Positions 21,026-44,100 of a stretch of 56,335 nt of DNA are shown here, in pieces. Origin of the DNA: Bacilli bacterium (GTDB taxonomy: Bacteria > Bacillota_I > Bacilli_A > ML615J-28 > CAG-698); contig JBFXGS010000001.1 of assembly GCA_050177775.1 (NCBI GenBank), forward strand, positions 1-56,335, given 5' to 3'. Both the position numbers and the translations under genes were made by a program. The notes under the pieces are model-generated. The model made no database searches. It saw only the letters and a program-made list of their open reading frames with translations, and was not told where the DNA came from. Positions within the stretch are counted from its first letter, which is position 1. Each line of letters opens with the position of its first letter.

Positions 21026-22492
21026 TTAATTTTCAATCGTTATTTTTATTTCGAAAGCACGATTCCAAGGGAAACAAGCGTTATAATTTAATGGGAACAA
21101 AGGGTCCGATAAAGCATGAAGATTTGTCTGCAACAATTGAATTAATTCTTTACTTGGTTTAAAGTCAAAGATATTGAGCAAGTTGGAATGCAAATACTGA
21201 TGAATTTTTGGTCTGACGATATCTTGGTAAAAGCAATCATCAATAATCCGTTCGAGTAAAAATTGATGACATAGTTCGTGGTTCGTAAAGTGTTTATCAC
21301 AAGTAATTAAAGCGGTTGCTAAAAGGCTACCAGTGGCATTTGATGCGGTATTCCACCCGCTGAACCCCTTCAATTTTAAGAAATCAATTTGTTTTAACAA
21401 TTGATAGCAAGCCCCGTTGGGAGCATTAATATCAAGTAAAAAAACAGGAATGTTATCTTTTAAGATGATATTTAATTTGTCAATAAACGCCAGAGTATCG
21501 GGATCAAAAGATATTTCGAGCGGTTTTTCTCGATCGCACACTTCCATTTTCTGCGAGTTGTTGCTTTGGAAAACAGCAAGAACAAAGGATGCGGAAGCAA
21601 AATCATCGGTTCTTTTCATGCTAAGAATGGACGTCATTTTTTGCAGGTTTTCGATATACGGGCGATCTTCAAACGGTAAGGGGTTTTTTAATAATTCTTC
21701 ATTGGGATGTAAAAGGAAATAAGTTAAATCTTGTTTTCTTATCTCGCGAATGATTTTGGCAAGTATAAAGCAGCTGGCTTCATCGGTTCCATTATAAAGC
21801 CAAGCTTTAGTCGCTAATTGACCTTCTTTTATTTTTGCTTCTAAAAGATCGTGTTCCAATGTTTGTAAACCATTGGGCATGGAGTCTTCTTGTAGGAGCA
21901 GCAAGAAATCAATTTTGTTTTGTTTTAATAAATCAAGGATGATTTTATTGACCTCATGTTTTTTAATCCGGGCAATTTCGTATGTTTTAAGAATATCAAT
22001 TGGTATTTTAGAACTAATTTCTTGAAACTTTTCATAATCAGAAGGGTTTTTATATCTGAGAAATTGTCCTTTATACCGACTAAATTCATTTATTAATTTC
22101 CAATATTGGGTTGTTTTCTCATCAAAAGTTGATATTGAAGTCCGAAGAACGGTATCAAAAGCGTAAATCTTTAATTTTGGATTAAGCGTTTTTAAACTTT
22201 TTAAAAACTTTATTTTATAATCAAGTTCTTCGACCGAATAATTGGCCTTTCGGCTTTGAATTAAACCACCGCTAATAAGACTGTCAATTGGACAAATCAA
22301 ATAATCTAAATGGTTTACTTCATTTTTAAGAAAGTTTTGAATAGCGGTGAAATCAAGTTTTGAGTGCAGAGTTCCAAGCAAGTTTTTTTCCATCGTTATT
22401 AGGTTGATGTTGGCCATTTTTGCAAGAGCAATGACCCAATCATAATTGCAAGGACGACTATCTAGCGGAATTAATCCAACATTTGTTTTCAT
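21026..22492 (-). CDS. DUF4127 family protein, paralogue 1 (divergent copy)
   Basis: 488 aa with no signal peptide. Shares IPLDSRPCNY, DSLISGGLIQSR, QEDS, SGWNTASNATGS, LLERIIDD and FPWNRAFEI with the two paralogues at 36063 and 39500. Confidence 0.65.
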   Translation of the reverse strand: MKTNVGLIPLDSRPCNYDWVIALAKMANINLITMEKNLLGTLHSKLDFTAIQNFLKNEVNHLDYLICPIDSLISGGLIQSRKANYSVEELDYKIKFLKSLKTLNPKLKIYAFDTVLRTSISTFDEKTTQYWKLINEFSRYKGQFLRYKNPSDYEKFQEISSKIPIDILKTYEIARIKKHEVNKIILDLLKQNKIDFLLLLQEDSMPNGLQTLEHDLLEAKIKEGQLATKAWLYNGTDEASCFILAKIIREIRKQDLTYFLLHPNEELLKNPLPFEDRPYIENLQKMTSILSMKRTDDFASASFVLAVFQSNNSQKMEVCDREKPLEISFDPDTLAFIDKLNIILKDNIPVFLLDINAPNGACYQLLKQIDFLKLKGFSGWNTASNATGSLLATALITCDKHFTNHELCHQFLLERIIDDCFYQDIVRPKIHQYLHSNLLNIFDFKPSKELIQLLQTNLHALSDPLFPLNYNACFPWNRAFEIKITIEN

Positions 22493-22564
22493 TATAAGCT
22501 CCTTTGTGCTCTAATTGTAACATACGAAAATCAAAAAGAGAATAAGAATATTTGCAAAAATCAA

Positions 22565-22593
22565 TTGACTAGACATTTAGTAAATGATATAAT
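22565..22593 (+). promoter_or_regulatory. Consensus sigma-A promoter of the first sugar-ABC operon, overlapping an operator-like motif
   Basis: TTGACT (22565-22570), 17 nt, TATAAT (22588-22593). The 11-mer TTGACTAGACA recurs at 41045. Confidence 0.75.
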
Positions 22594-22604
22594 CAAATGT
22601 GAGA

Positions 22605-22618
22605 TGTAAACGTTATCA
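22605..22618 (+). promoter_or_regulatory. Catabolite-responsive element (cre, CcpA site)
   Basis: TGTAAACGTTATCA matches the cre consensus TGWNANCGNTNWCA at every defined position. It lies just downstream of the -10 box. Confidence 0.7.
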
Positions 22619-22676: not shown

Positions 22677-24221
22677 ATGTTTAAGAAACTAATGATTGCT
22701 GTTTTAATGATCGTTTCTGTTTTCATGTTTGTCGGCTGTAATCAAGACGATGACATTGTTGAAAGTTTGGATTCCATTAAAATTTATGGCCCGTTTGACA
22801 CGTTCGACCCTGAAACCGATTATGTTCACCAATTAATAAAAGACATAACCGGTGTTGATGTTGATTATGACTTTTTACCACAGGATGGTGCTTCCGCAAA
22901 TACAAAATTGTATTTAGACATTGCCGGACAAGCACAATATCATCTTTTAAAACTTGCTCCTACTCAATTTGATCAATTACGTGCTGTTGGAGCACTGCTT
23001 GATATTACGGAATTACTAGAAGAATATGCCCCAAATATTACCAGTTCCGTAACTGAAGAAGTATGGAAAACAGCAACTTTTGATGGAAAAATCTATGGTG
23101 TTCCACAAAAGAATCCATCAAATAACATCAACAGTGCCTTATTCTTAAGAAAAGATATTTTTGTTGAGAATGATGTGGCATTGCCAACAACTTTAACTGA
23201 ATTTAAAGAAGCTTTAGTAGCTTTAAAAACAAAACTTGGTTCAGCATTTGTACCTTTCAGTGCAAGTTCTCATAATATTGAACCAATCAGAGGAGCGTTC
23301 GGGATTGTAACCGACTGGGTTCCACAAATTGATGGCAGTTTAAAATACTGGACGCAAACCGAAGCTTTCCAAGACTATGCCGATTATATGAAAGAATTAG
23401 TTGATTTGGGAGTTATGCAAGATGGTTACTTAACAATTCCTAATTATGGTGCAAATAGCCGTGCCGGATTGCAAAATGGGACTGTTGGTGTTACACTAGA
23501 TGCATGGTGGAGTGGTAATGGCATCATTAATGGCATCGCTGCTTCGGAAGGAAAAACTGAAGAATATGTCATCGAACACGCGTCAGAATATTTACATTTC
23601 ATTGATTCATTATTAGGCGATGTCAACTATGGTACTCCAGGAAAAGGCCAAGCCAAAATGGATTACTCCATTACATATTTCTATGCTATTCCAAAATACA
23701 TGGGAAATACCGCGATGGCGGTTATTAAATGGATGAATGAAAAAATGGATCCCGTTAATTTCAAACGTTTAACAATCGGTGAAGAAAACGTTCATCATAC
23801 CCTTGTTGACGGAAAATATTTCCCAATTTTAACGCCTGATGCCAATAATAAAGTTCCGTTTGATTCTTTCAATAAGGCCGATTATTTCTTAACAGGAATT
23901 CGTGAAGCTGATTACTCATTATATTGGCAATGCCGTGCCCGTAAGAATCCTCGTCAACAATTTGTTTGGGAAGGCATGAATACGGAAGCTCAAAAAACTG
24001 CGGTGGGAATTTATGACCGTGTTGGTTTAGCGCCTGGTTTCTTAATTTATGGAGCTAACAAAACAAAATTATCACAACTCACGACTGATTATTTGGTTAG
24101 TGTTATTACTGGTCAAGGAACACAAATGACACAAACGGAATTTAATGCGAAACTAGTTGCGGAAGCGCAATTAACAGAAAGCATTGCGGAAGTCAATGCT
24201 TGGTATGCGACACTTGAATAA
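22677..24221 (+). CDS. ABC transporter extracellular solute-binding lipoprotein (large LplA-type, CUT1)
   Basis: 514 aa. Signal peptide with lipobox FVGC. Size and context of large sugar SBPs, and followed by LplB/LplC-type permeases. Confidence 0.85.
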   Translation: MFKKLMIAVLMIVSVFMFVGCNQDDDIVESLDSIKIYGPFDTFDPETDYVHQLIKDITGVDVDYDFLPQDGASANTKLYLDIAGQAQYHLLKLAPTQFDQLRAVGALLDITELLEEYAPNITSSVTEEVWKTATFDGKIYGVPQKNPSNNINSALFLRKDIFVENDVALPTTLTEFKEALVALKTKLGSAFVPFSASSHNIEPIRGAFGIVTDWVPQIDGSLKYWTQTEAFQDYADYMKELVDLGVMQDGYLTIPNYGANSRAGLQNGTVGVTLDAWWSGNGIINGIAASEGKTEEYVIEHASEYLHFIDSLLGDVNYGTPGKGQAKMDYSITYFYAIPKYMGNTAMAVIKWMNEKMDPVNFKRLTIGEENVHHTLVDGKYFPILTPDANNKVPFDSFNKADYFLTGIREADYSLYWQCRARKNPRQQFVWEGMNTEAQKTAVGIYDRVGLAPGFLIYGANKTKLSQLTTDYLVSVITGQGTQMTQTEFNAKLVAEAQLTESIAEVNAWYATLE

Positions 24222-24246
24222 TTAATCCGAATTCGGAGGTAAGTCA

Positions 24247-24885
24247 ATGTTAAACAGAGCACTTTTTGTTTTGGGGCGTTTATTTTTATTAAATGTCATA
24301 TATATTCTAACGGTTGCTTTTAGCCTAGGAATATTAGTTGCCCCGGCAACAAGTGCTCTTTTCTATTGTACAAAAGATTTACTAAACAAAGATACCAAGG
24401 AATATGGGTTTCTTAAGCAATATATGAATATCATAAAAACCAAATTTCGTTTTAGTTTTTGGTTCGGTTTAATGGCAGCCTTAATTCTTTATCTTTGTAT
24501 TGTTAATCTCGATAACGTGTTATTAATGAATTATCCTTCTTGGTTGTTAAAGACAATTGTCGTTTTCCAGTATATCATCATTGTTGAAACTTCTTTAATG
24601 ACCGTCATGGTTCTTTTTTTAAATGGTTTGTTTTTATTTTCTAAGTTTTCTGATTTGTTGAAAATGGCTTTTTTTATTCTTCATCGTCATTTTTTTACAA
24701 CCTTAATCATGGTTATTACCATTACCGTTTTAGTATATGTTTTTGTTTTTTATCTTAATGCCTTTTTGTTGCTGTTATTTTTTAGTGTCGTTTATCTTTG
24801 GATAAATTTATTATATTGGCCCATCGTTAATAAATACATTGTTAAGAAGGAGGAAAAACCAGAATATGAGCAAAAAGCCGAATAA
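24247..24885 (+). CDS. DUF624 (YesL-like) membrane protein
   Basis: 212 aa. N-terminal LNVIYILTVAFSLGILVAPATSALF pattern typical of YesL-family proteins in sugar ABC operons. Confidence 0.7.
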   Translation: MLNRALFVLGRLFLLNVIYILTVAFSLGILVAPATSALFYCTKDLLNKDTKEYGFLKQYMNIIKTKFRFSFWFGLMAALILYLCIVNLDNVLLMNYPSWLLKTIVVFQYIIIVETSLMTVMVLFLNGLFLFSKFSDLLKMAFFILHRHFFTTLIMVITITVLVYVFVFYLNAFLLLLFFSVVYLWINLLYWPIVNKYIVKKEEKPEYEQKAE

Positions 24886-25804
24886 GTTGTTAAAACATTT
24901 AAATCAGTACGGCGCTTTGTATTTTTTCTTAATCCCGGGATTAGTTCTAGTTGCCATTTTTAACTATGTTCCGATGGCCGGAATTGTCATTGCCTTTAAA
25001 AACTATGATATTTTTGCCGGAAGGACCCCAATCGAATCCATCATCAAAAGTGATTGGGTCGGGTTAGCTCATTTTAAAGAGTTGTTCAGTAATACCGATT
25101 TTACCAACGCCTTTGAAAACACATTAATAATCAGTACTTACAAAATTGTCTTTCTATTTCCGATTCCCATCATCTTAGCGATTATGATAACCGACATCAA
25201 AGCCTTGTGGTACAAAAAAGTGATTCAAACCGTCTTATATTTGCCGCACTTTTTATCATGGATTGTTGTTACCGCGTTATTTATTCAAATCCTTGGACCT
25301 TATGGAGTTATCAATAATTGGCTAAAAAGTTTGAACATTATCGAGCATTCCCTGGCTTTCTTTGGAAACAACGATATTTTCCGCGGTTTAATTGTCATCT
25401 CCGCGGGTTGGAAAGAAGTCGGTTGGAATGCGATTATATATATTGCTGCCATTACGGGGATTAATCCCCAACTATTTGAAGCGGCAAAGATTGATGGTGC
25501 CAGTAAAATGCAACAAGTGTTTTATATTACCATCCCGTCCATTGCCAATACGATTGTGATGTTGTTTATTTTAAGAATCGGCGCCATTTTGGATGCCGGA
25601 TTCGACCAAATTTTTAACATGTATTCCTATGTTGTTTATGATAAAGGTGATATTTTATCAACACTAGTTTACCGTTCAGGTATCGGACAACAAAATTATA
25701 GTTTTGCGACGGCGGTTGGTTTATTCAATTCCGTTGTTGCTTTAATTATGGTCCTTGGTGGAAACTATTTATCACGCAAAATCTTTAAGAAAGGACTGTG
25801 GTAA
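24866..25804 (+). CDS. Sugar ABC transporter permease (LplB-like)
   Basis: EAA loop EAAKIDGASKMQQVFYITIP and 6 TM helices. Start at ATG 24866 with an AAGGAGGA RBS. Confidence 0.9.
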   Translation: MSKKPNKLLKHLNQYGALYFFLIPGLVLVAIFNYVPMAGIVIAFKNYDIFAGRTPIESIIKSDWVGLAHFKELFSNTDFTNAFENTLIISTYKIVFLFPIPIILAIMITDIKALWYKKVIQTVLYLPHFLSWIVVTALFIQILGPYGVINNWLKSLNIIEHSLAFFGNNDIFRGLIVISAGWKEVGWNAIIYIAAITGINPQLFEAAKIDGASKMQQVFYITIPSIANTIVMLFILRIGAILDAGFDQIFNMYSYVVYDKGDILSTLVYRSGIGQQNYSFATAVGLFNSVVALIMVLGGNYLSRKIFKKGLW

Positions 25805-25805
25805 T

Positions 25806-26672
25806 ATGCTTGAATCAAGGAATGATAAGATTTTTAGTATTATTGTTTACATCATATTATCGATATTTGGATTATCGATAACCCTTCCGTTCCTTAATTT
25901 ATTAGCAACATCGCTTTCGGATCAAGTCGCGGTATCGAACGGGAGTGTGTCTTTTTGGCCCAAAAATTTTACATTAAGTGCTTATCAATTTGTTATTCAA
26001 AATGAACAATTTTGGAACGGACTAAAGACGACCGTCTTTGTGACTTTTGTCGGAACCGGCTTAGCGATGGTCGTAACCACACTTGTTGCTTATCCGTTAA
26101 GTCTTCCTAAATTCCGTGTTCGCAAAATCTTTTTAATTATATTCATCATCGTGATGCTCTTCAATGGCGGGTTAATTCCCACCTATTTACTAATCAATCA
26201 AATTGGACTGAGAAATAATCGTTGGGCGCTCATATTGCCATCTTTGATTTCAACTTATAACATGTTGTTAATTAAAAATTATTTTGAAACTCTTCCCGAA
26301 GCTCTTTATGAATCGGCTAAAATTGATGGAGCTTCCGAATTTCAAATCTTTTTAAAAATCACTTTGCCGCTATCTTTACCGACGCTTGCTACGGTTGCTT
26401 TATTCTATGCGGTGGGTTTTTGGAATGCCTATGTTAATGGGATGCTCTATATTTCGACGCCAAGCAAAATGCCTTTGCAAACTTATTTACAAACGCTCTT
26501 AAATATGGCTTATATTCCGGCTCATGAATTATCTCCGGAAGTCGCAGAAAGCCTTTCAACGGAATCGATTCGTGCCGCCACCATTTTCTCAGCCACCATT
26601 CCTATTTTGATTTTATATCCTTTCTTACAAAAATATTTTGTGAAAGGATTAGTGTTGGGTTCGGATAAATAA
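25806..26672 (+). CDS. Sugar ABC transporter permease (LplC-like)
   Basis: EAA loop ESAKIDGASEFQIFLKITLP. Start at ATG 25806, immediately after the upstream stop. Confidence 0.9.
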   Translation: MLESRNDKIFSIIVYIILSIFGLSITLPFLNLLATSLSDQVAVSNGSVSFWPKNFTLSAYQFVIQNEQFWNGLKTTVFVTFVGTGLAMVVTTLVAYPLSLPKFRVRKIFLIIFIIVMLFNGGLIPTYLLINQIGLRNNRWALILPSLISTYNMLLIKNYFETLPEALYESAKIDGASEFQIFLKITLPLSLPTLATVALFYAVGFWNAYVNGMLYISTPSKMPLQTYLQTLLNMAYIPAHELSPEVAESLSTESIRAATIFSATIPILILYPFLQKYFVKGLVLGSDK

Positions 26673-27097
26673 TGAAAGATTCTTTGAAAATCTTTTTATT
26701 AAGGTCGTGGGTCATTGGAGTTGTGGTCGTGGTTGGGCATTTTATGATGAAATTACAGCACTTGTCGATTGGTCTTATTTTAGGAGTAATTAATACCTTT
26801 TTAGTAGACTTGGTTGTTTTAACGATTTTAAAAGGAAATCAAACCCACTTTCCGAAAGGTTGGAAATTGTTTTTACGAACAATTCTTAATATTGTGACCG
26901 CCATTGGTCTTAGTTTAATTATTCGCTTAATAGATTTAGCACTTTTAAATAAAGGTTTAATTACCATGCCCATTGAAACTTTTCGTTTTATTGCTTATTA
27001 CCAAGTAATGTATTATTTTGGTTTCTTTGTTTATAAAAAAATCTTGGTCATAATAGAGAGGAAAAAATATGAGTCGAATACTAACAAGCCTTCATAA
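26672..27097 (+). CDS. Small hypothetical membrane protein (about 4 TM)
   Basis: 141 aa, hydrophobic, with no recognisable motif. Its start overlaps the permease stop by 1 nt. Confidence 0.5.
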   Translation: MKDSLKIFLLRSWVIGVVVVVGHFMMKLQHLSIGLILGVINTFLVDLVVLTILKGNQTHFPKGWKLFLRTILNIVTAIGLSLIIRLIDLALLNKGLITMPIETFRFIAYYQVMYYFGFFVYKKILVIIERKKYESNTNKPS

Positions 27098-27761
27098 TAA
27101 GCCCATGACGTTAGTTGTCAGTTTACCCGAAAACACTTATGAGATGGCCAAAGCCGCATGGGAAGCGCAAGCAGATGCCATCAAAGTTCACATTAATCTT
27201 TTTCATAATGCCAGCCTTGTCAAGTTTGGTTCTTTAGAAGAACAACGACCGGTTTTAGAAAAAATAATTCACGATTCACCGGTTCCGGTCGGAATCGTTG
27301 CCGGCCAAGACACAAAAACAAGCGAAGCAGTCATTGAAGAACTTGTGAAAATGGGATTTGATTTTATATCTTTGTATGGTCATCATATGCCAGTCTCGTT
27401 AGTTAATCGTCGAGATGTTTCTAATTTATTTGCCATTGATTATAGTTATTCTTTAGAAGAAGTTAAAACCATTACCAATTCTTTTATTGCGGATATTTTA
27501 GAATTATCCATTCTACCTCATGAAGAATATGGACAAAGGTTAAATGCCCGCGATTTGAGTAGATACTTAGCGTTTTCACAAATATCAAGCATTCCAACGC
27601 TTCTTCCTTCACAGCGTTTACTTTTGCCTAGTGATGTAAACATGATTGCAAAATGCGGGGTGAAGGCGATTATGATTGGCGCAATCGTTTTTGGTCATGA
27701 TTTGGATCAAATGTCCAAACAAATAATGCAGTTTAAACAAGCCATCAATCAATTAAATTAA
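27069..27761 (+). CDS. Hypothetical cytoplasmic protein, possibly a (beta/alpha)8 phosphate-binding barrel
   Basis: 230 aa. Alternating beta-alpha pattern (LVVSLP, ADAIKVH, PVGIVAGQ, DFISLYG, ILELSIL, IPTLLPSQ, GVKAIMIGAIVFG), reminiscent of NanE/ribulose-phosphate-binding barrels. AGAGGAAAA RBS. Confidence 0.45.
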   Translation: MSRILTSLHNKPMTLVVSLPENTYEMAKAAWEAQADAIKVHINLFHNASLVKFGSLEEQRPVLEKIIHDSPVPVGIVAGQDTKTSEAVIEELVKMGFDFISLYGHHMPVSLVNRRDVSNLFAIDYSYSLEEVKTITNSFIADILELSILPHEEYGQRLNARDLSRYLAFSQISSIPTLLPSQRLLLPSDVNMIAKCGVKAIMIGAIVFGHDLDQMSKQIMQFKQAINQLN

Positions 27762-27774
27762 AGGGGGATTAAAA

Positions 27775-28737
27775 ATGTCACTTACTGTTTTAGCAATTCC
27801 AACTTATGATAGTCGGGCTTTCGATGTCCGCCGTTTTATTCATCCACCCATTTTTGATGGCATTATCGACCAAGAAAAAAAGCCGCCGCAACCACCCGCT
27901 TGCTTTTTAGGAGCATGGTATCGCAAGGTGTTTTCCTCGTTTGATTCTTGGTTGGGAATTGAGGGCGTGATTGAACTTGGTGAATTTACTCCCGATGAAG
28001 CGCGCTTTAATCTTGACGGTAAAGGGCGATACATGGATGTCCCAAGCATTTATATGGGGGGAAAAAGTGCATTCGAGAGTGATGCCGGACTGGGTTTAGG
28101 ACCAACATATTTAACAGGTGATTTTTCGGCGGAGTTGTCAGGCTCCAGTCCCAAAATGGCTTACCGCCCGTTTTGGCGTTTTATCTATCAAGATGCAATG
28201 GAAATATCTGGAAATGTAAAACGTCGCGAGATTAATTCATGGAATGTCTCGGATCCAAGAAGTGTTATCTATAACTACTTTCCCGGCGATGTTTTAAGAA
28301 TGAGCGTCTATAGTCCGATTAAGGATTATTTACAATTGCATATTGAAGTAATTAAAACAACAACCATTCCCAAATATGTGAACATTAGAAAACAATACCA
28401 TTTGGTAAATGATCGTCCCGATGATTTTTTTAGTCCCATCTTTTTATCAAAAGGACATGGGTACAAAGATGCAGAATTTAAAAGAGTCAATGCCATCGAT
28501 CAATTTGGCAATGAAGGATTTCACGCGAAACCGACGAAAGCCGAAGTATCAAAAGCGACTTGGCATGAAACCTATTTATATCGGATGCTAGATGGGGAAA
28601 TAAAAAGAGTTCCTTTTTCAAAAGCAAGACAAACAAGTATGATTTGTCCCAATGTGGAAGCGGTTAATGTTGAACTAATCAACCCAGATATGGGAAGCGA
28701 GGCCATAACCATTCAACCAGGTAAAATTAAGGGGTAA
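27775..28737 (+). CDS. Orphan 320-aa cytoplasmic protein, paralogue A (family unassigned)
   Basis: No signal peptide or TM helix. Roughly 60 percent identical by eye to the 35090-36052 product. GGGGGA RBS. Confidence 0.6.
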   Translation: MSLTVLAIPTYDSRAFDVRRFIHPPIFDGIIDQEKKPPQPPACFLGAWYRKVFSSFDSWLGIEGVIELGEFTPDEARFNLDGKGRYMDVPSIYMGGKSAFESDAGLGLGPTYLTGDFSAELSGSSPKMAYRPFWRFIYQDAMEISGNVKRREINSWNVSDPRSVIYNYFPGDVLRMSVYSPIKDYLQLHIEVIKTTTIPKYVNIRKQYHLVNDRPDDFFSPIFLSKGHGYKDAEFKRVNAIDQFGNEGFHAKPTKAEVSKATWHETYLYRMLDGEIKRVPFSKARQTSMICPNVEAVNVELINPDMGSEAITIQPGKIKG

Positions 28738-28751
28738 AGGGGAAAATATTT

Positions 28752-30455
28752 ATGAATTTTAATGAGAAAACTTATATCTGTAAAGATGTTTATACGATTG
28801 ACGGCATCTTAAACTTTATCGGAAAAATCCCCGTTGATATCAACGGGAGAACAGTCACTTATAAAATGTATGCCAATTATCATGAACTGTTAGACAAGAA
28901 TGTTTTTGAGATAAAAAGCCAAGGAATTCGTTTATATGTTCACTTTGATGAAAAAATAAAACCAGATGGTTATTCGATAAACATTACCACAGAAAATAAA
29001 ATAATCATTAAAGTCGCCAATAACCGCGGGATTCGTTATGCTTTTAAAATGCTCAATGACCTTGTGAAAAAAACAAAACAAGGTTTTACGCTTCCAATTA
29101 TCTTAATTGAAGATGAACCTTCTTTTTCGGTTAGAGGGATTGTGGAAGGATATTATGGGGAACCATGGACTTTAGATGAACATCTTGATATGGCTGATTT
29201 TATGGATCAATATCGGTTGAATGCGTTTATGTACGCTCCCAAAACAGATCCATATCATCGCGATAAATGGTTTGAATTATATCCGGATGATCTTTTTTCC
29301 ACGCTTTGTTCAGTGAAAGACAAATTAGAGAGTAAGGATATTGATTTCTATTATTGCATTTCACCAGGCCATGCCAAGAAACCTGAAGACGGATTTAAAT
29401 ATGTCGGTGATGAAGATTTCGAAAGACTGTTTAATAAATTAAGACAAGTTATCGACATTGGCGTCAATCACTTCGGTTTGTTCTTAGATGATATTGATTA
29501 TCAACTGAGCGGAGAAAACCAACGAATTTTTAAACGGCCGGGAATTGCTCATGCCCATATTTGCAATAAAGTATATGATTTCTTAAAGGAAAACGTCCTT
29601 GACCCAACTCTGGTTATGTGTCCAACCGAATATCATCAAATTGGTCAGACCGAATACCGCCATGATTTAAAAGAATATTTAGATGATGAAATTGTAGTGT
29701 TTTGGACAGGAGATCGGGTTTGTGCTGAAGCAATTACAGAAAATGAGGCTAAAGAAACATTAGAAGCCTATGAAAAACCTATTTTTATTTGGGACAATTT
29801 TCCTGTTAGTGATTTTACATATGGAGTTAGAGAGTTTATTGCTCCGATTAAGAATCGATCCGCTAACTTAGGAGCCTATGCCGAAGGGTTCTTTATTAAT
29901 CCAAGCCTTCATTATCATATTTCAAAAATGGGGATGATTACGATGGCTCATTATGCTTGGAATACTTCCCACTATGATCCGGAAAAATCTTTTGAAATAG
30001 CGCTTAATAGTGTAAGTCGAGAATTTGCAAATTTAGGTCAAGCTTATTTTAATTATAATTATCCAAATGTTCTCTCCCATGGAAACCTAGAAATGGAAAA
30101 ACAAATGGTTGAAAACCATGATTATCCCGCCATTATAAATTATATGCAAGATATGTCTAAGAGTGCAAAAGCTTTATTGACCCTTAAAGAACCTATAATT
30201 GATGAATTGAAACCATGGTTACAAAGAGCTGTGGAAGAAGAAATAATGGTGAAAAAAATAATAGAAGGAAAAATTGTTAAACAAGAGTTGTTGGCCTTTT
30301 TTGAAAACATCAAGTTTTCAGGCGGAAAAATCCTTGATTATTTAATCGCTGATTTAAAACTATTTAGTGATGAAGAATATAGCACGCTCATTGCCAAAAG
30401 AAGAGGTGGAGAATGGTACCGCGTTTTTGAATATAAACGTTGGTCCAACCATTAA
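28752..30455 (+). CDS. GH84 family beta-N-acetylglucosaminidase (O-GlcNAcase/NagJ-like), cytoplasmic
   Basis: 567 aa. Motifs RGIVEGYYGEPWT, YAPKTDPYHRDKW, FGLFLDDIDY (catalytic DD), CPTEYH, FWTGDRV and IWDNFPVSDF. No signal peptide. Confidence 0.85.
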   Translation: MNFNEKTYICKDVYTIDGILNFIGKIPVDINGRTVTYKMYANYHELLDKNVFEIKSQGIRLYVHFDEKIKPDGYSINITTENKIIIKVANNRGIRYAFKMLNDLVKKTKQGFTLPIILIEDEPSFSVRGIVEGYYGEPWTLDEHLDMADFMDQYRLNAFMYAPKTDPYHRDKWFELYPDDLFSTLCSVKDKLESKDIDFYYCISPGHAKKPEDGFKYVGDEDFERLFNKLRQVIDIGVNHFGLFLDDIDYQLSGENQRIFKRPGIAHAHICNKVYDFLKENVLDPTLVMCPTEYHQIGQTEYRHDLKEYLDDEIVVFWTGDRVCAEAITENEAKETLEAYEKPIFIWDNFPVSDFTYGVREFIAPIKNRSANLGAYAEGFFINPSLHYHISKMGMITMAHYAWNTSHYDPEKSFEIALNSVSREFANLGQAYFNYNYPNVLSHGNLEMEKQMVENHDYPAIINYMQDMSKSAKALLTLKEPIIDELKPWLQRAVEEEIMVKKIIEGKIVKQELLAFFENIKFSGGKILDYLIADLKLFSDEEYSTLIAKRRGGEWYRVFEYKRWSNH

Positions 30456-30464
30456 GGAAGCCTT

Positions 30465-31133
30465 ATGATGATGGAAAAAATAAAAAATCAGTTAATTGTT
30501 TCTTGTCAAGCTAAAGATAATGAACCATTAAAAGATCCAATGATTATGGCAAAGATGGCAGCATCGGCACTACTTGGGGGAGCAAAAGGCATTAGGGCAG
30601 CGGGCGTTGAAGATATTAAAGCCATTAAAGCATTTAACGATACGCTTGTTATCGGTTTAATAAAACGAAATTACCCTGATTCTGAAGTTTACATTACACC
30701 AACCAAAGTTGAAGTTTTAAAGTTGGTTGAAAGTGGTTGTGAAATAATTGCTCTCGATGGAACAAATCGTCACCGCCCCAATCAAGAAACTTTGGTAAGT
30801 TTAATCGTATTAATCCATGCCAACAATCGTTTAGCCATGGCAGATATTTCAACATTTGAAGAAGCTTTAATGGCGCAACAAGCAGGTGCTGATTGTATTT
30901 CCACAACTTTATCGGGATACACAAGTTATTCAAAGCAACAAGCGGGGCCTGATTTAAAATTACTTAGTAAATGTGTTGCAAAATTACAAATACCCGTGAT
31001 TGCGGAAGGACGGATTCGTAACCCTCAAGATTTGAAACGCGTTTTAAAGAAAAAACCTTTTGCAGTTGTCATCGGAACAGCGATTACGAGACCTTCAGAA
31101 ATCACCAAAACATTTGTGGAGTGCTTCAAATGA
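30465..31133 (+). CDS. nanE: N-acetylmannosamine-6-phosphate 2-epimerase
   Basis: 222 aa with the NanE pattern (LIVSCQA..EPL, IALDGT, ADIST, TTLSGYT, IAEGRI, VVIGTAITRP). Confidence 0.88.
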   Translation: MMMEKIKNQLIVSCQAKDNEPLKDPMIMAKMAASALLGGAKGIRAAGVEDIKAIKAFNDTLVIGLIKRNYPDSEVYITPTKVEVLKLVESGCEIIALDGTNRHRPNQETLVSLIVLIHANNRLAMADISTFEEALMAQQAGADCISTTLSGYTSYSKQQAGPDLKLLSKCVAKLQIPVIAEGRIRNPQDLKRVLKKKPFAVVIGTAITRPSEITKTFVECFK

Positions 31134-32773
31134 ACCGAAAAACTATTGTAGATTCAACCCATGATATATTGGCTTTTTGGAATCGTGAATTTGCGAACAA
31201 CTATCCTATTTCCGAACGCTTATTTAAAGAAAAGATTCTTAATTCAAAGGAAGTTGCTTTGGACGGATCGTATTCACTATATGACCAGGAAGAGTATATT
31301 GGCAGCGTTATTCTAAAATTTAACCAAATTAATGATAAAAAGCTTCAAGATAATGCTTATATTTCCTTTTTATTTGTGAATCCCAAATTTCGTAACCGCG
31401 GGTATGGTTCCCTTTTTATCAGTGATGTAATTCGTATTTGTATTGAAAATGAAAAATCAATGCTATACGTCGGCGGAGACAATGATTGTTTATTTTCGGG
31501 TGTTTTTTTAGATAACAATGATTTCGTTCATCAATTTTTTAAGGACCATCGGTTTAACATTGCTTATAAAAATTATAACTTAATATGTAAAACCTCACCC
31601 CAAGTACCAAATGATGAATATGAATATTCCACTTTAAAAACAGAAGAAGAACGAAACGAATTATTAAAACAAGTTCGCAAATTGTTTCCATCGCGTTGGC
31701 ATTATGATATTCAGAATTGTGAGCCGCAAGCGTTCTTCGTTGCGAAAGAAAACAAGGTAATTGTCGGGTTCGTTCGGTTAAACACTCCGCTTTTTTCACA
31801 AATTGCCAATAGTGTTAATACTTACCCTTTGTACAAAATGCTGGGAGGGATTGGACCGGTAGCCATTTTTCCCGAGAAAAAAGGCTCGGAACTAGCCAAC
31901 AACATCGTAAAACAAGCCGTAAAACATTTGTTTGATTTGGGTTGTTCAGAGGTAATAGTTGACTGGACAAACTTTATTGATTTCTTCAAGCAATCAGGAT
32001 TTTCCAATGTATCTAACTCCTATGTTCTTTACGAGATGCGCATTCGTGAAAAAATAAAAGGACCAAAAACGCATATCTATCAAGTTATCGAAAATGATTT
32101 GCGGCATGAAATCCTTGAAGGAAAATATAAACACGGGGACATTATTCCAAGTGAGGTGGAATTAGCGGCCACGTATAAAGTGACGAGAATGACTGTTCGT
32201 CAAGCCATTAGTAATTTGCTAATTGACGGCTTTCTTTATCGACATAAAGGCCGCGGGACTTTTGTAACTTACAACAAGCGGAACATTGATTTTGAGGATA
32301 AACCTTTCTTTTCTTTCACAAATGATAAAAATAATAACGGGGAATTAAGAACGACGGTTTTACTCTTTGAAATTAGAGCCGCTGATGAATTATTAGCCTT
32401 ACGTTTACAACTAAAATTAGGGGATCCTCTCTATTATGTGGAAAGACTGACTGCCCTAGAAAATAAGCCGTTGCTATTTGAAAGACTTTATCTTCCTGCT
32501 AATATGTATAATAATTTAAGCGTTGAAGTCTTTCAAAAATCATTTTATGAATATGCAAAAAACGAATTGCATTGGAATTTACTTTCCTACAATATCCATA
32601 TTGAGGCCAGAGGATTAAGTGGTCGAGCTGCGGAAGTGTTGCAATTATCAACGGGAGATCCAACTCTTTATTGCAGCAGTGTGACTCATTTAGCGAATGG
32701 ACGCGCCATTCTTTATTCTCGAACTTTCTTCAATGCCGAACAAGTAAACTTTTCTCATCAATTTTCTTGTTAA
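31130..32773 (+). CDS. Fusion protein: tandem GNAT-like domains + GntR/HutC-family wHTH + UTRA effector domain
   Basis: N-terminal roughly 310 aa has two GNAT-like cores (FVNPKFRNRGYGSLF; GPVAIFPEKKGSELANNIV). This is followed by IYQVIENDLRHEILEGKYKHGDIIPSEVELAATYKVTRMTVRQAISNLLIDGFLYRHKGRGTFV and a UTRA-like C-terminus. ATGA overlap with the nanE stop. Confidence 0.8.
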   Translation: MNRKTIVDSTHDILAFWNREFANNYPISERLFKEKILNSKEVALDGSYSLYDQEEYIGSVILKFNQINDKKLQDNAYISFLFVNPKFRNRGYGSLFISDVIRICIENEKSMLYVGGDNDCLFSGVFLDNNDFVHQFFKDHRFNIAYKNYNLICKTSPQVPNDEYEYSTLKTEEERNELLKQVRKLFPSRWHYDIQNCEPQAFFVAKENKVIVGFVRLNTPLFSQIANSVNTYPLYKMLGGIGPVAIFPEKKGSELANNIVKQAVKHLFDLGCSEVIVDWTNFIDFFKQSGFSNVSNSYVLYEMRIREKIKGPKTHIYQVIENDLRHEILEGKYKHGDIIPSEVELAATYKVTRMTVRQAISNLLIDGFLYRHKGRGTFVTYNKRNIDFEDKPFFSFTNDKNNNGELRTTVLLFEIRAADELLALRLQLKLGDPLYYVERLTALENKPLLFERLYLPANMYNNLSVEVFQKSFYEYAKNELHWNLLSYNIHIEARGLSGRAAEVLQLSTGDPTLYCSSVTHLANGRAILYSRTFFNAEQVNFSHQFSC

Positions 32774-32775
32774 CT

Positions 32776-32798
32776 AGTGCCATTAAATGGCACTTTTT
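32776..32798 (+). terminator. Intrinsic terminator ending the first operon
   Basis: AGTGCCAT-TAA-ATGGCACT hairpin followed by TTTT. Confidence 0.75.
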
Positions 32799-32802
32799 CA
32801 AT

Positions 32803-32836
32803 TTGTATATACAAGTTATTTTTTAAATGGTATAAT
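32803..32836 (+). promoter_or_regulatory. Promoter of the second operon with a perfect 12-bp palindrome operator candidate
   Basis: TTGTATATACAA (32803-32814) is a perfect palindrome overlapping the -35 region. TATAAT lies at 32831-32836. Confidence 0.6.
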
Positions 32837-32855: not shown

Positions 32856-35090
32856 ATGAGGAAAATTTTTATGGCTTTTTTGTTAGCAACGCTTTTATCC
32901 GGGGTTAGTATTAATGCCGAAACCACTGCCATTGTTGATGATTTTTTAAACGGGAAGGATGTGGTCCGCTATGAAAACTATTTGGTTTATTATAGTTTCA
33001 ATTCGACTTTAAAATCACCTGCAAACCAATGGGGATATGAAATTGCGGTTAGCAGTAATCACTTTGTGATTGATTGTGACACAAACGCAACCATGGAAAC
33101 AGGAGGATATATCATATCCGGGCATGGGACGAAAAAAACGACGTTGCAAAATGTCAAAGTTGGTGATCAAGTTAGTATCAATTGGGAAACTAAACAAATC
33201 GTGATTACGCGCGATAGTTTGAAAAGCCCGCAATTTTTAGCTCATCGTTTTAAAACAACCTCGGAAAACTATTACAATCAAGCAATCGAGGGCGGATATG
33301 ACTTTAACAGAACGCTTGTTGAACATATGCTTAATTTAAATGATAATGATTTACTGCAGATTGATGCCATCGTTGAAAAAGAAAGTCCCACAAGCAATGA
33401 AATTGATTTGGTTAAGATACTGGCTGATGGCATTGATGCTAGGATGCTATCCATCAAGTTTTTAACTTCTTTCTCTTCAACTACGGAAATTAGAGCTTTA
33501 TGGCATCGACCCAATGCGGCAGGCATTAAAGAGAACAACTTAGAAAATTTAAAGGCGTTTGTGCAAGAAGTAAAGGACCTTGGGTTTAATACCATTTTTG
33601 TGGAGACGCTTTGGAATGGATATGTCAGTTATCGGTCGGATATCATTGCTACGCATCCGCAAGTTGCTAATTTTACCTATGGTGAAGAATATAAAAACGA
33701 TTATATTGCGGCTTTAATTGGTGAAAGTCAAAAATTAGGCATTGATGTTCATGCTTGGTGCCACACCTTTAATGCGGGGAATGCAACCTACAAAGCCACT
33801 TCCATTAAAGATGAATGGTTATTGGAAGATTATCAAGGACTTACTTTACATCCAAATAGTTATGGAGGCAGTTATTATTTAGATCCATCTAATCCGGAGG
33901 TACTGACTTACTTGACAAGCGTTTTTTCGGAAATGGTTGAAAAATACGATTTTGCGGGAATTCAATTAGATTACATACGTTATTATGATAATAATTATTT
34001 ACAAACGCCGATTCGTGATAGTGGTTACGGATTACTCCCGGAAACACAATTTAAAACAGAATATTCATTAACCGGTGATGTTCGAACCCTCATTAAACAA
34101 AACACCTATTTGGAATTATGGAATGAATGGCGCCAAAACAATGTAACCAATGCTGTTCGAACTTTTTCTTCGGCTTTAAGAAGGCTTAATCCGCAGATCA
34201 TCATATCCGCGGATGTTGTTTCGAGTATCAATTATGCGAAAAGTACATATATGCAAGACTGGAAAACATGGGTTGAAAAAGGATACATTGATTTATTATG
34301 CCCAATGATTTATACCGGAAGTGCCGAAACTATTGAAAAAGACTCGTTAGCGATAATGAATCAAATAAAAAACCTTTCGTTTTTAGCTTCAGGGATTGCT
34401 CCAATTTATTATGGGCATTCGTTAGAAATCAATCATGATGAATTCGTCGCAACAAAAAGCGGCGATGGTTTAGCCTTTTTTGCAAGCCAAAACATCGTTG
34501 GATTAAGTGATGTTACTCAATCAATTAAAACAGGGGTTTTTAGAAACACGGCAGTATCTCCGCTTCGAGAAACCAAATTGGTTATCACAGAAGCTTTGTT
34601 GAACTTGAAAAGCTATGTTGAAAAGGCGATGGCGAATGAACCGCAACAATTAATGTTTTTAAACCATGTCGAAGAAATGATGACAATGAAGTGTGATAAC
34701 CCGGCTGATTATCAAGCCCTTATGGAAAAAATGATTTTTGTAAGAACGATAACTCCGTACATCTCTTCTTCTTCAATGCGAGAAATATTCTCACAAGAAT
34801 TAACTCAATTAATTCATATTCTTGATGTGAAAATAAGTCGAGAAATGATTGCTTATGGTTTTTATAACCCTGATGATGAAGAAAGGCCCAATCCGGATCA
34901 ATTTGATTACCCAATCGATAATCCAGAACCCGAACCTGAACCGAAACCCGAGCCGGAACCAGAACCGGAACCCGAGCCTGAACCAGAGCCGGATGAAGAA
35001 AAAGGTTGTTTTAAAGTGTTTTCGTTTCCTTCTGTTTTGCTTCTTGGATTAATTTTTATCTTTATTCGAAAAAAAGAAAGAGGTTATTAA
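32856..35090 (+). CDS. Secreted, C-terminally anchored GHL10 (DUF187/YngK-like) glycoside-hydrolase-like protein
   Basis: Signal peptide MRKIFMAFLLATLLSGVSINA. GHL10-like core RALWHRPNAAGIKENNLENLKAFVQEVKDLGFNTIFVETLWNGYVSY ... GIQLDYIRY. C-terminal PE repeat, KGC, TM helix and RKKERGY tail. Start trimmed to ATG 32856. Confidence 0.75.
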   Translation: MRKIFMAFLLATLLSGVSINAETTAIVDDFLNGKDVVRYENYLVYYSFNSTLKSPANQWGYEIAVSSNHFVIDCDTNATMETGGYIISGHGTKKTTLQNVKVGDQVSINWETKQIVITRDSLKSPQFLAHRFKTTSENYYNQAIEGGYDFNRTLVEHMLNLNDNDLLQIDAIVEKESPTSNEIDLVKILADGIDARMLSIKFLTSFSSTTEIRALWHRPNAAGIKENNLENLKAFVQEVKDLGFNTIFVETLWNGYVSYRSDIIATHPQVANFTYGEEYKNDYIAALIGESQKLGIDVHAWCHTFNAGNATYKATSIKDEWLLEDYQGLTLHPNSYGGSYYLDPSNPEVLTYLTSVFSEMVEKYDFAGIQLDYIRYYDNNYLQTPIRDSGYGLLPETQFKTEYSLTGDVRTLIKQNTYLELWNEWRQNNVTNAVRTFSSALRRLNPQIIISADVVSSINYAKSTYMQDWKTWVEKGYIDLLCPMIYTGSAETIEKDSLAIMNQIKNLSFLASGIAPIYYGHSLEINHDEFVATKSGDGLAFFASQNIVGLSDVTQSIKTGVFRNTAVSPLRETKLVITEALLNLKSYVEKAMANEPQQLMFLNHVEEMMTMKCDNPADYQALMEKMIFVRTITPYISSSSMREIFSQELTQLIHILDVKISREMIAYGFYNPDDEERPNPDQFDYPIDNPEPEPEPKPEPEPEPEPEPEPEPDEEKGCFKVFSFPSVLLLGLIFIFIRKKERGY
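34924..34992 (+). repeat. Imperfect GAACCN hexanucleotide repeat encoding a (Pro-Glu)n linker
   Basis: Encodes PEPEPEPKPEPEPEPEPEPEPEP. A similar tract lies at 39367-39420. Confidence 0.85.
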
Positions 35091-39507: not shown

Positions 39508-41011
39508 AATCATTTATGTTCCCCTTGATGAACGTCCCTGTAATTATCGATTTCCTTTTCAAATATTTAATCAAAAAAACACGGAAATAATTACTTGTCC
39601 AGAACATTTGATGGGTTATAAAAAGCGACCGGCCCAAATCAACCAACTTAATGAATGGTTAATGATCAATACTAAGCATGCTTATGGTTTGGTTGTTGCC
39701 CTAGATACACTTATTTATGGAGGAATTGTACCCTCACGACTCCATAATTTGCCTTTAGATGTGTTAATAAGTCGATTAACTATTTTAAGAAGTTTGAAAA
39801 AACAAAATCCTAATTTGATTATATATGGATTTTCCTTAATTATGCGATGCCCCGAGTATAATTCTGCCGATGAAGAACCGGAATACTTTCAAAACCACGG
39901 AAAAAACATTCACCTTTTGGGTTATTTGTCCCACATGAAAGAATTAAACATTCTTAGTAAATCCGATCAAGAAAAACTTGATAATATCCAAATCCCCAAG
40001 GAATACATCGATGATTTTTCACATCGTCGTTATGTTAACCAACAAATTAATATCGCTGCATTAGAGCTTGTGAAAGAAGAAATCATTACCTTTTTCACAA
40101 TTCCTCAAGATGATTCTTCAAAGTATGGTTGGACGGCCAAAGATCAAATCAAGATTAGAGAGGTTATAAAAAAACATAAACTGTTTAAGAAAGTTTTTAT
40201 GTATCCTGGTGCGGATGAAGCTGGTTGTGTTTTACTCAGTCGAATGGTTTGTCTTAACAATCATCTTCAACCGAAAGTATATATTAAATACCCCGGTCCC
40301 ACTTGTTCGAAAATAATCCCCTCCATCGAAGATCGCTATTTGGATACGATGGTAAAATACCACATTATTGCTTGTGGCGGGATAGTAGTTGATGCTTTAA
40401 AGGAATGTGATGCGGTTTTATTGATCAATGCTCCTGCAGATTACATGCGCTCCTCATTTAATAAAGAAGAACCCGGCCGGGGACTGGAAGTTCAGAGAAA
40501 CCTTGTTGAAGCCATCGAGTTTATTGAATACGTGGGCCAAAAACAAAAAGCCATTATTATTGGCGATATTACTTATGGAAATGGCAGTGATTTAGAAATT
40601 TATCATTATTTATCTTTAAAGAAAATGCTTTTTAAACTGGCGGGTTTTGGAGGATGGAACACAGCTTCCAACAGTATCGGGCAAGCCATCGCCATGGGTT
40701 TTTCGTGCTTGCTAAACGGGTTTACCAAACAACATTTAGCTTTTTTAATCAGCCGCTATGTTGAAGATATCGGTTATTGTGGTTATGTTCGTCAAACAAT
40801 TATGAAGGACTTTTTGCCTAGACATCCTCAGTTAAACTATTTCGATGTAAAAAGCAAAGCCGGAATCGTCGCAACAGAAGTTAAGGATCAATTAAAGTTG
40901 TTTGTACAAACCAAAATGCCTGATTTATGGCCCCACATTATTATTAAGAAAGTTGAATTACCTTGGAAACGCATGTACGAAATCGATTTAGAGGTTGAAT
41001 ATCGACCCTAA
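39500..41011 (+). CDS. DUF4127 family protein, paralogue 3
   Basis: 503 aa from MNRIIYVPLDERPCNY. AGGAGGA RBS. 8-nt overlap with the upstream gene. Roughly 45-50 percent identical by eye to paralogue 2. Confidence 0.65.
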   Translation: MNRIIYVPLDERPCNYRFPFQIFNQKNTEIITCPEHLMGYKKRPAQINQLNEWLMINTKHAYGLVVALDTLIYGGIVPSRLHNLPLDVLISRLTILRSLKKQNPNLIIYGFSLIMRCPEYNSADEEPEYFQNHGKNIHLLGYLSHMKELNILSKSDQEKLDNIQIPKEYIDDFSHRRYVNQQINIAALELVKEEIITFFTIPQDDSSKYGWTAKDQIKIREVIKKHKLFKKVFMYPGADEAGCVLLSRMVCLNNHLQPKVYIKYPGPTCSKIIPSIEDRYLDTMVKYHIIACGGIVVDALKECDAVLLINAPADYMRSSFNKEEPGRGLEVQRNLVEAIEFIEYVGQKQKAIIIGDITYGNGSDLEIYHYLSLKKMLFKLAGFGGWNTASNSIGQAIAMGFSCLLNGFTKQHLAFLISRYVEDIGYCGYVRQTIMKDFLPRHPQLNYFDVKSKAGIVATEVKDQLKLFVQTKMPDLWPHIIIKKVELPWKRMYEIDLEVEYRP

Positions 41012-41044
41012 TTATATCCTTGTGAAAACCTTTTCAATCTTTTC

Positions 41045-41073
41045 TTGACTAGACAAGTAAAGGAATGTATAAT
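41045..41073 (+). promoter_or_regulatory. Consensus sigma-A promoter of the giant lipoprotein gene, overlapping an operator-like near-palindrome
   Basis: TTGACT (41045-41050), 17 nt, TATAAT (41068-41073). CTTGACTAGACAAG (41044-41057) pairs at 6 of 7 palindrome positions. Confidence 0.75.
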
Positions 41074-41103: not shown

Positions 41104-44100
41104 ATGTCAAACATTAAAAAATTTCTATTTTTCCTAAGTTTAATCATTGTGGTGTTTTCGCTCACAGCTTGTAAACCCAAGGATACGGAAAAACCAAGCT
41201 TAGTGATTCCATCGCCAACGATTACTCATGTTGTTAATGAAGATGTTGACTTGCTAGAAGATATCACAGCAACAGATAATGTATCAGTTGCAGCCGATAT
41301 TACGATTGAAATATCTGATTTAGGCGGATATGACAAAACAAAAGTCGGCAATTATACCGTTACGATTAAAGCGACGGATAAAGCAGGCAACTTCATTACG
41401 CGAACGATTACTGTTAATGTAACCGAAGCGCCAATTTTGGATACTGTTGCTCCAACGTTAACAATAGGCAAACCAAGCATCACCCATGAGGTCAATGCCA
41501 CTGTCAATCTATTAGCCGATGTTACGGCAACAGACAATATTGATGCTGCCAACGACATTACCATTAGCATTTCTAATTATAATGGCTATGACAAGAGCGT
41601 TGCAGGAACTTATGTCATCACGGTAAAAGCGACGGACAAGAGTAACAACTTCTCGACCGCGACGATTACCGTAATTGTGAAAGATGATGTTTTGCCACCG
41701 ATGGTGACAGGAGCAGTAACAACCATTACGCAACTAGCTGGCGAAACGGTTGACCTGACAAAAGGTTTAACCGGTGTTGACAATAAAGATGGCGTTAATG
41801 TTATTTTTACAGTCACCAATCTTAAAGATTATAACAAAGATGTTCCCGGAACATACACCGTCGAAATCACCGCGTCCGACTCATCCGACAACCATGGCGT
41901 TCCTTTTAACCGCACAGTTGTTGTGGAAGAGGGGTATGCTCGTGCCGAAATGACTTCATTTGCTGGTGATACAATTCGTTACCAAGCTCTTTATAACCCA
42001 CAAATCATGAATAGTAATACGGCAACCGGTTATAACTCGGCTTATGATGGTCATTATGTTAATGTTCTTTCTAAAGAATACTTGGAATGGATCATTGAAT
42101 ACGCCCCTGAGCGTTTAGGAGCCGGTGTCGGTTGGAGCGTTATTGCTGTGACTGATTCTACGGATAAAATTGTTTATGTTCGCCATTGGAATAGTGGTGA
42201 AGCTTACCACGATGCTCAAGGAAATTTAGTTTCGGCAAAATCAGTTAACTGGTCAACGGGAACTATTCGCACATGGACGGAAGAAGTCGGTGGCCAAACC
42301 GTCGGCATGTCTAATGCGAAATACAGTTCAGCCGAAATGGGCATGATGATGGCCAATATTAATGAATGGGTTCCTGAAGGCGGACATGTTTTCATCTTCC
42401 TTAACTGGACAACGATTGGTGAAGATGAATCAGGCAATTTAATCAGCATCGCTAACTCAGCAACCATGCCTCGTTCAATGGGTGCTAATTACATTATGTC
42501 AAGTGATGAAAATGGCGATGATGTCATGGATTATGCCATTGGAAGAACTTTAAAAATTCTTGATAAACAATTGACCGATAATACTATTCGTCAAAGTTTT
42601 GATCCCGCTAATCCTTTCCCAATTATTTCGATTCCTAGTGTTCGTTATGTCACATCAACCGGAATTTGGAAGAACCGTTATACAGAAACAGTTTATTTGG
42701 ATGAATTCAATCAAACAAATCCATACAACCCTTTAAATGGCGTTTTTGCAAATGACGGAAAAGGAACCGACATTACTTCTTCAATTACATATAAAATCTT
42801 CCGTTATCAAACAACGGAACAAGCTTATGGATTATTGACTTCGCTCGCGATCGATGACCCACGTTGGGCGTATTATGTCGATGCTGCGGAATTATGGAAG
42901 AAGGAAGAAAATGAAGTAACCCTTGAACAAGTGATGGTTGATGCCAATAATGATTATCATTTTGTCGTTCAATACCAAGTTACCGCTAATGGCCATACCG
43001 ATACCGCTTATAAACTTATTCAAATAAAAGCGCAAGTTCCAGACTATATTGATTTATATGGAGCAACGGACTCGGTTTTCTCAGAAGCCATGGGACTTCA
43101 ACAACGTTTGGATATGAATCCAAATCTTGAAAACTTTGGTTCGATGACAACCACCGAAAAAGGGATTATTTATACCGCTTCGGCTTTCAAAGCATTAACT
43201 GTTTTCCCAGCCTTGGAAAAAGGCGTTGTTGTCGTCGTTGATCCGTTCTATCGCATTCAATTGATAAGAATCGTAAATGGAATAGCTTTTGAATTGGATG
43301 GAACAGGGACAGCCAAAACAACGGATTTAACTTGGATTTCAAGTCAAATGTTAGCCGGGTTAGATACGTTAGTTCCTGCCGGTGGATATGTCATGATTTA
43401 TCCGGAAGGACTTAATGGCGCTGTTCTCACAAAAGCTTTAAAAGCTTATTATGATTATGGTTATCAATCAGGAGTTTTAACAGAAGCTTTGCCTACTAAT
43501 GGAAAAGTTTCGGTTGAAATGATTATCAAAGAAGTCAAAGAAGTATCGACGTTCATCGTTAATGATGTGGCTCCACAGATTAACATTAACAATGCTTTAA
43601 CAAACATCTTTGCTGTGGAAAACAATAAAGCATCATTAGTGTTCTCTTCTGCAGGTGGTGGAGCGGGTTTCCGTTTGGATACCGGCAAAGCATACTACTA
43701 TACGAAAGCAGACTATGCTGTTTTATCACAACACACTGATGTTGTTTCTTCGTTCACAACTTTAAGTCCTAACAAAGGTGTGCCTTGGTTCCGTGACGGT
43801 GTCATTATCGTAGTTGATGCGAGTGGAAAATTTGTTCAAGCTCGCGTAATGACCACATCCGCTGCCGCTGAAATCCATGTTGACGGAACGGTTGTTTACG
43901 GAAATGCTGCGGTTGTAGCTTTAAGTGAAACGGCCAAAGCGGCTGCTGGTCAAGCTAACCTGACATGGGATTTAGTGCTTCCAAATGCCGCTAACACGGT
44001 TGCCCATGGACCGCTTGCGGATATTCAATCGGTTATTCCTGAAGGTGGAGCATTCTATATTCTTCCGGGTACCGCCAATACGGCCGTTCGAAATTATGCC

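Follow-up and report, generated by a model that had tools for sequence, protein, structure and literature searches.

Three related dyads at the promoters of an amino-sugar glycan island as candidate operators of island-encoded GntR/HutC-type repressors

The window, meaning the whole stretch of 56,335 nucleotides that was analysed, originates from an uncultured, wall-less, Izemoplasma/Acholeplasma-like bacterium and carries a gene island for the scavenging of amino-sugar glycans. According to Pfam assignments, a divergent DUF4127 gene (DUF4127-1, 21026-22492, minus strand) lies next to a first operon on the plus strand (operon 1, 22677-32773) which encodes a solute-binding protein, a DUF624 protein, two permeases, three unassigned proteins, a GH84 NAGidase, NanE and a regulator that is referred to here as F. 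The gene of F is the last of operon 1 (31121-32773, plus strand), and its 550-residue product consists of tandem GNAT domains followed by a GntR winged helix-turn-helix (wHTH) and a UTRA domain, which makes it a HutC-type protein. Operon 1 is ended by an intrinsic-terminator-like hairpin with a T-run (32776-32794, plus strand), only 8 nt before the next candidate operator. The GHL10 operon, also assigned with Pfam, starts from its true ATG at 32857 and encodes GHL10, orph320, DUF4127, NAGPA and again DUF4127, and the last operon starts at 41104 with the gene for a giant lipoprotein of 1793 residues and extends beyond the window. Synteny with the congener G003 indicates that contig C2 comes next, separated from the window by some 66 nt. 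Along C2:1-12507 (locus L030) the giant-lipoprotein operon goes on with a third ABC system (permeases), Ig-domain binding proteins, a free-standing tandem-GNAT protein, a second regulator (U), an SGNH esterase, a fourth DUF4127 protein and an FAD oxidoreductase. U is an unfused GntR/UTRA regulator of 243 residues whose gene (G000:C2:7239-7970, G000 being the genome of the window) lies inside this operon, 22.5 kb downstream of the second of the sites described below. The fused F mirrors the adjoining unfused pair of free tandem-GNAT gene and U in the same island.

An initial annotation of the window had described a motif shared by all three promoters of the island and overlapping the -35 box in each, and both statements are borne out. 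TTGACTAGACA is present at 22565-22575 and again at 41045-41055, where it is embedded in CTTGACTAGACAAG, a 14-bp dyad with one mismatched pair, while TTGTATATACAA is located at 32803-32814. Candidate operator 1 (TTGACTAGACATTT, 22565-22578, plus strand) provides with its first six bases the -35 box TTGACT of the first ABC/GH84/NanE/regulator operon, and the -10 box TATAAT follows after 17 nt (22588-22593, plus strand) with a TG at the extended -10 position; this -10 box is invariant in the alignment of site-1 promoters. Likewise, the first six bases of candidate operator 2 (TTGACTAGACAAGT, 41045-41058, plus strand) form the -35 box of the giant-lipoprotein operon promoter, the -10 box of which is TATAAT at 41068-41073 (plus strand). 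The candidate operator at the GHL10 operon promoter (site 3, TTGTATATACAAGT, 32803-32816, plus strand) comprises the perfect 12-bp palindrome TTGTATATACAA, and here the -35 box is TATACA at 32808-32813, within the palindrome and at the canonical 17-nt spacing from the -10 box TATAAT (TGgTATAAT; -10 box at 32831-32836, plus strand). In a consensus scan for sigma-70-like promoters, the promoters at sites 1 and 2 match in 11/12 positions (TTGACT-17-TATAAT) and the one at site 3 in 10/12 (TATACA-17-TATAAT at 32808, with TG), and together they are the best-ranked intergenic promoters of this type in the island. All three are located in the only sizeable intergenic regions that the island has.

The three sites of 12-14 bp share the dyad consensus TTG-W-M-TA-K-ACA-W. 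In sites 1 and 2 the left half-site has GA where the consensus has GT, which allows it to double as an ideal -35 box, and the conservation of this half-site is thus partly owed to the promoter. Outside the 11-mer and the -10 box the spacers of sites 1 and 2 agree at 3/12 positions; since their flanks are unrelated, the shared motif does not stem from a duplicated promoter. The right flank of site 1 reads ACATTT as opposed to ACAAGT at sites 2 and 3, a difference that is constant in six genomes.

The divergent gene DUF4127-1 is probably transcribed from a promoter with TGtTACAAT (22514-22522, minus strand). The centre of operator 1 is found about 60 nt upstream of the likely transcription start of this gene, clear of its promoter elements. 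The initial annotation had tied the whole locus into one regulon: the link between the first ABC, the GHL10 and the giant-lipoprotein operons stands, but its extension to DUF4127-1 is uncertain with the operator in this position.

Two further boxes accompany these promoters. Located 12 nt after the -10 box of promoter 1, TGTAAACGTTATCA (22605-22618, plus strand) is a perfect cre box; it is kept in 5/6 congeners (one altered) and absent in G001, and would add catabolite repression to promoter 1. The cre-like box TGAAAACCTTTTCA (41023-41036, plus strand), 8 nt upstream of operator 2, has a central CC, not CG, and is kept in all five congeners, where it reads TGTAAACCTTTACA or TGTAAACCTTTTCA; three other genera still have it recognisably. 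It would add catabolite control at this promoter too, its binder perhaps being CcpA or another LacI-type regulator; the genome contains two genes with a LacI-family HTH.

The sites stand out in alignments of six genomes, namely G000 and five congeners carrying the same island. Invariant columns amount to 34/36 in the operators, compared to 11/38 in the spacers up to the -10 box and 24/120 in the 40 nt upstream, and regulator F is only 59-83% identical across these genomes. Variation within the operators is limited to G/T at position 8 of sites 1 and 2, which corresponds to the degenerate K of the HutC consensus (see below), and site 3 is invariant in all of its 12 columns. The -10 box follows at a fixed distance, 11 nt at sites 1 and 2 and 16 nt at site 3. 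In every one of the six congeneric genomes the number of such sites is exactly three, and the promoters at which they lie are the same.

Bases that are shared by promoters might represent nothing but promoter context, that is a -35 box with a favoured spacer or a duplicated promoter on which no repressor acts. TTGACT, a near-consensus -35 box, is indeed half of the motif in sites 1 and 2, and a degenerate pattern for the sites has five matches in the 1.39 Mb of the genome, which is no higher than the count in shuffled sequence. This pattern was written post hoc from the sites themselves, so that the enrichment seen for it in the window (4 matches where 0.22 are expected) is circular and was discounted. 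Variants of the form TTGAATATACA fit the pattern but are scattered at about the control frequency, showing that the pattern is too permissive where W at position 4 goes together with M = A. A more specific picture arises from the -35 boxes themselves: an A[G/T]ACA extension follows TTGAC[AT] in 4/1997 hexamers genome-wide, and among the 104 TTGAC[AT] boxes with a good -10 box at 16-18 nt it occurs only in the two island promoters, the AGACA/ATACA extension being present in 0/102 of the other promoter-like boxes of the genome. The motif therefore exceeds what the -35 box alone would bring with it, and the similar frequency at unrelated promoters that the initial annotation had named as counter-evidence is not seen. 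Furthermore, six to nine genomes show no change in the six bases past the -35 box but variation in the remaining spacer, the 5' half of the perfect palindrome at site 3 lies outside the -35 box, the flanks of sites 1 and 2 have no common origin, and in G044, a member of another genus, the homologous dyad is conserved without overlapping a -35 box. Judged by these comparisons, promoter context appears largely refuted as an explanation and is highly improbable.

The annotation had also called for a genome scan with a weight matrix. With a matrix of 18 sites, the top of the ranking is formed by the three island sites together with a single site ahead of rny, which score at least 2 bits above the rest of the genome; the palindrome ranks lower when the matrix is made from only the three G000 sites. 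The rny-upstream match (TTGACTATACAT, G000:C5:31283-31294, locus L038, minus strand) is probably due to chance, as no congener keeps it; some 20 nt downstream of it there is a TTGACC-17-TATAAT promoter ahead of rny, the gene for RNase Y. Two intragenic near-matches, at 31959 within the F gene and at 40814 within DUF4127-3, were considered as auxiliary operators and rejected, neither of them being conserved in orthologues.

The core of the motif had been likened to NagR/DasR-type operators of the HutC subfamily, and it does fit the published consensus of the subfamily, NyGTMTAKACNy (PMC4494728). Site 3 (GTATATAC) matches this consensus exactly, with GT and AC 4 nt apart and a central TA. Sites 1 and 2 (GACTAGAC) agree at 7/8 core positions and have one perfect half-site; the deviating base makes an ideal -35 box of the left half-site. 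The native sites of NagR are imperfect dyads too (PMC4333415). The locus thus combines a consensus dyad, a HutC regulator that co-occurs nearby and conservation beyond neutral, as is expected of a HutC operator.

The closest functional parallels are NagR (YvoA) of Bacillus subtilis and DasR of Streptomyces, which share with the island system the GntR/HutC architecture of wHTH and UTRA domain, an operator dyad with GT-4 nt-AC spacing and central TA, the residues Arg48 and Gly69, and a regulon for amino-sugar catabolism in which one of the regulated operons contains the repressor gene. The differences are considerable. The island operators begin with TTGT instead of the TGGT of dre, Arg38 is replaced by V/S/T in F and U, the regulators are two paralogues, one of them carrying a fused tandem-GNAT (GlmA-like) module, and the targets are DUF4127, NAGPA, GHL10, GH84 and the 1793-residue lipoprotein genes as opposed to nagAB/nagP. 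The strict dre consensus (A-G-T-G-G-T-C-T-A-G-A-C-C-A-C-T, with GG at -5/-4) does not describe the island operators, and by this comparison the island system, NagR-like in its apparent working, is strictly speaking no dre/NagR orthologue. One TreR box in the PtreA promoter of B. licheniformis is TTGTATATACAA, the second being ATGTATATACAA, and a cre box is present in the same promoter (PMC11356801). The first box is thus letter for letter the site at 32803-32814, but the likeness rests on the operator letters, whereas the regulon and the effector (trehalose-6-phosphate) of TreR differ and no tre genes are found here. BguR of Streptococcus pneumoniae has an operator (AAAAATGTCTAGACAAATTT) which overlaps the -35 box of the bgu promoter and, as promoter truncation revealed, mediates a repression that the sugar relieves (PMC3585215). 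AAAAATGTCTAGACAAATTT includes ATGTCTAGACAA, which is one base off the reverse complement of site 1 (ATGTCTAGTCAA); in contrast to the island, BguR serves a single cellobiose PTS operon as the only regulator and is not a fusion. The proposed type of switch, GntR/HutC repression, is textbook, and what is added here is the presence of U off the window, the conservation across genera, the correspondence between residue 38 and base -5 and the genome-wide -35 control.

F and U are the only two GntR-family or UTRA proteins encoded in the assembly, which is 84% complete, so that a third HutC-type regulator could exist unseen. The domains of F are recognised by Pfam with E-values of 2.4e-19 (GntR) and 1.4e-25 (UTRA). 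NagR/YvoA (2wv0/4wwc) is the closest solved structure to both proteins (E = 1.5e-24), and the only solved structures matched are those of NagR, YydK and DasR. The wHTH reading heads of F and U are near-identical, but the effector domains have diverged and the overall identity is 58%. In structures of NagR bound to DNA, Arg48 reads G-4, Arg38 reads G-5 and Gly69 in the wing contacts G-7 (PMC4333415). Arg48 and Gly69 are kept in F and U, and the island operators have G at -4 in both half-sites; position 38 is Val/Ser in F and Thr in U, and the operators have T instead of G at -5 (TTG, not TGG), so that the change in the operator corresponds to the loss of Arg38 in the proteins. The match between residues and bases also agrees with a published statistical rule by which Arg at HTH position 28, where U-type regulators have Thr, pairs with G/C at the respective nucleotide (PMC4494728). 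As F has the same DNA-contact residues as U, it most likely binds to the same sites, and by sequence F, U or both may occupy them in the cell.

The effector pockets are less uniform. In NagR, the pocket for GlcNAc-6-P/GlcN-6-P comprises Thr90, Arg133, Arg135 and Ser165-Ile166-Tyr167. Arg133 and Ser165 are kept in all F and U proteins and Tyr167 in all but one, while Thr90 is variable. Arg135, one of the two phosphate-binding arginines of NagR, is kept in 4/6 U and in 1/5 F proteins, 4/5 F having V/T at this position (window 32036-32770 compared to L030:7239-7967). With this arginine lost in 4/5 F and 2/6 U, the analogy to the NagR effector is loose: a phosphosugar is plausible as effector of U, where Arg133 and Ser165/Tyr167 are kept and Arg135 is present in 4/6, and less so for F. 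In a maximum-likelihood tree F and U fall into one clade with 100/100 support, in which the F branches are long (0.08-0.37) and the terminal branches of U within the genus are very short (0.01-0.07). The fused form is found only in this genus among the 41 relatives searched.

The islands of G041, G043 and G044, which represent three other genera, encode U (67-78% identical) and no F. In all three, TTGACTAGACAAGT is identical ahead of the giant-lipoprotein gene, about 22 kb upstream of U, and a palindromic TTGTATATACAA or TTGTCTAGACAA/T precedes an orph320-GH84-DUF4127-NAGPA operon; the palindromic site lies about 8.4 kb upstream of site 2 and is kept together with it in these genera. The motif and U thus co-occur in at least four genera. 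The geometry is more variable, because the equivalent of the GHL10-operon site is placed about 14 nt upstream of the likely -35 box in G044 and downstream of the likely -10 box in G043, which means that occlusion of the -35 box is not universal. Since these genera have only U and yet keep the operators, U is favoured as the partner with which the motif has been conserved, whereas the ancestral regulator is probably not F. The long branches, the restriction to one genus and the absence of F elsewhere therefore mark F as a fast-evolving, genus-specific duplicate that brought along an additional operon (operon 1 with site 1).

Taken together, the position at the -35 box, the footprint, the specificity in the genome, the match to the operator family, the candidate proteins in the island, the fit of their residues, the other genera and the phylogeny argue that the three dyads are, with good confidence, operators of island-encoded GntR/HutC-type repressors which link three operons. 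The initial annotation had named the GNAT-GntR fusion as the presumed regulator, and F with its intact reading head stays a candidate for this role, but hardly the sole one given that U is conserved in genera without F. That F alone governs all three sites, with U having another target or none, would be in keeping with the location of its gene, which lies past site 1 and immediately ahead of site 3, with the intact DNA-contact residues Arg48 and Gly69, and with the fact that the site-1 operon exists only where F exists. It is nevertheless unlikely, as the three genera without F keep U along with counterparts of sites 2 and 3 that are identical or nearly so, the wHTH of U is nearly identical to that of F, and no other conserved HutC-like dyad is found within one mismatch near U in the five U-containing loci (L030-L034). 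A separate operator for U was accordingly discarded, U being encoded mid-operon without a promoter of its own and with no such site near its gene.

Alternatively, F and U could divide the labour on the same operators and integrate signals, either as homodimers or as heterodimers, with two sugar signals required for full induction and site 1 tuned to F. The near-identical reading heads on diverged effector domains are suggestive of such an arrangement, as are residue 135, V/T in the majority of F orthologues but R in the majority of U orthologues, and the systematic and conserved difference between the flank of site 1 and those of sites 2 and 3. This reasoning is purely inferential and the flank difference may equally reflect promoter history; we know of no example of HutC heterodimers, and such a division of labour is possible but rather doubtful. 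More tentative still is its extension to a two-input gate, in which two paralogous HutC repressors share one operator set and the degenerate GlmA-like tandem-GNAT module may sense sugar. If such a gate existed, the regulon of about 45 kb would be fully open only in the presence of two different amino-sugar signals, and the flank variant of site 1 would give the fused regulator a preferred site of its own.

For the three dyads as operators of HutC-type repressors, what we observe is the sites, where they lie in the promoters, how well they are conserved and with which regulators they co-occur; binding, repression and the nature of an inducer are what we infer from this. As the most likely mechanism it is proposed that a repressor dimer occupies the -35 region at each of the three promoters and blocks RNA polymerase, until the UTRA domain binds an amino-sugar-derived effector and the repressor is released. 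With NagR as a guide, the effector would probably be a phosphorylated N-acetylhexosamine generated by the island's own enzymes. All three operons, about 45 kb in total, would be induced together, and the regulon would encompass two to three ABC importers, GH84, NAGPA, GHL10, NanE, four DUF4127 proteins and the giant lipoprotein. U would act as the conserved cognate repressor, encoded 22.5 kb downstream of operator 2. With the genes of F and U inside regulated operons both repressors are predicted to be autoregulated, F probably through operator 1 since it is encoded by the last gene of operon 1.

Grouping the three operons into one regulon would combine about 40 genes into a single co-regulated unit that is conserved in several genera of uncultured Izemoplasma/Acholeplasma-like bacteria. 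Many of its members are uncharacterised, including the four DUF4127 proteins, two orphan proteins of 320 residues, DUF5696, DUF624, the 1793-residue lipoprotein and NHL/TPR and Yip1 proteins, and their conserved co-regulation would support a role in one pathway for the scavenging of N-acetylhexosamine glycans. The inducer of U or F should then be an intermediate of this pathway, so that the effector of the repressor could reveal the substrate.

HutC regulators with 36-40% identity to F and U are also encoded in Acholeplasmataceae and Haloplasmataceae (loci L069, L072-L077 and L079), in genomes that include Paracholeplasma vituli and Haploplasma modicum, and these proteins have Asn at HTH position 28. 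Several boxes of the type TTGACTATACAA or TTGTATAGACAA are found on promoters within 10 kb of their genes. While the Asn-28 homologues are surrounded by such TTG-type boxes, a homologue with Arg (Caryophanon, n = 1) has none within 10 kb. The Asn-28 HutC genes and their boxes probably constitute a related amino-sugar regulon which, being present in cultured relatives, is open to bench work.
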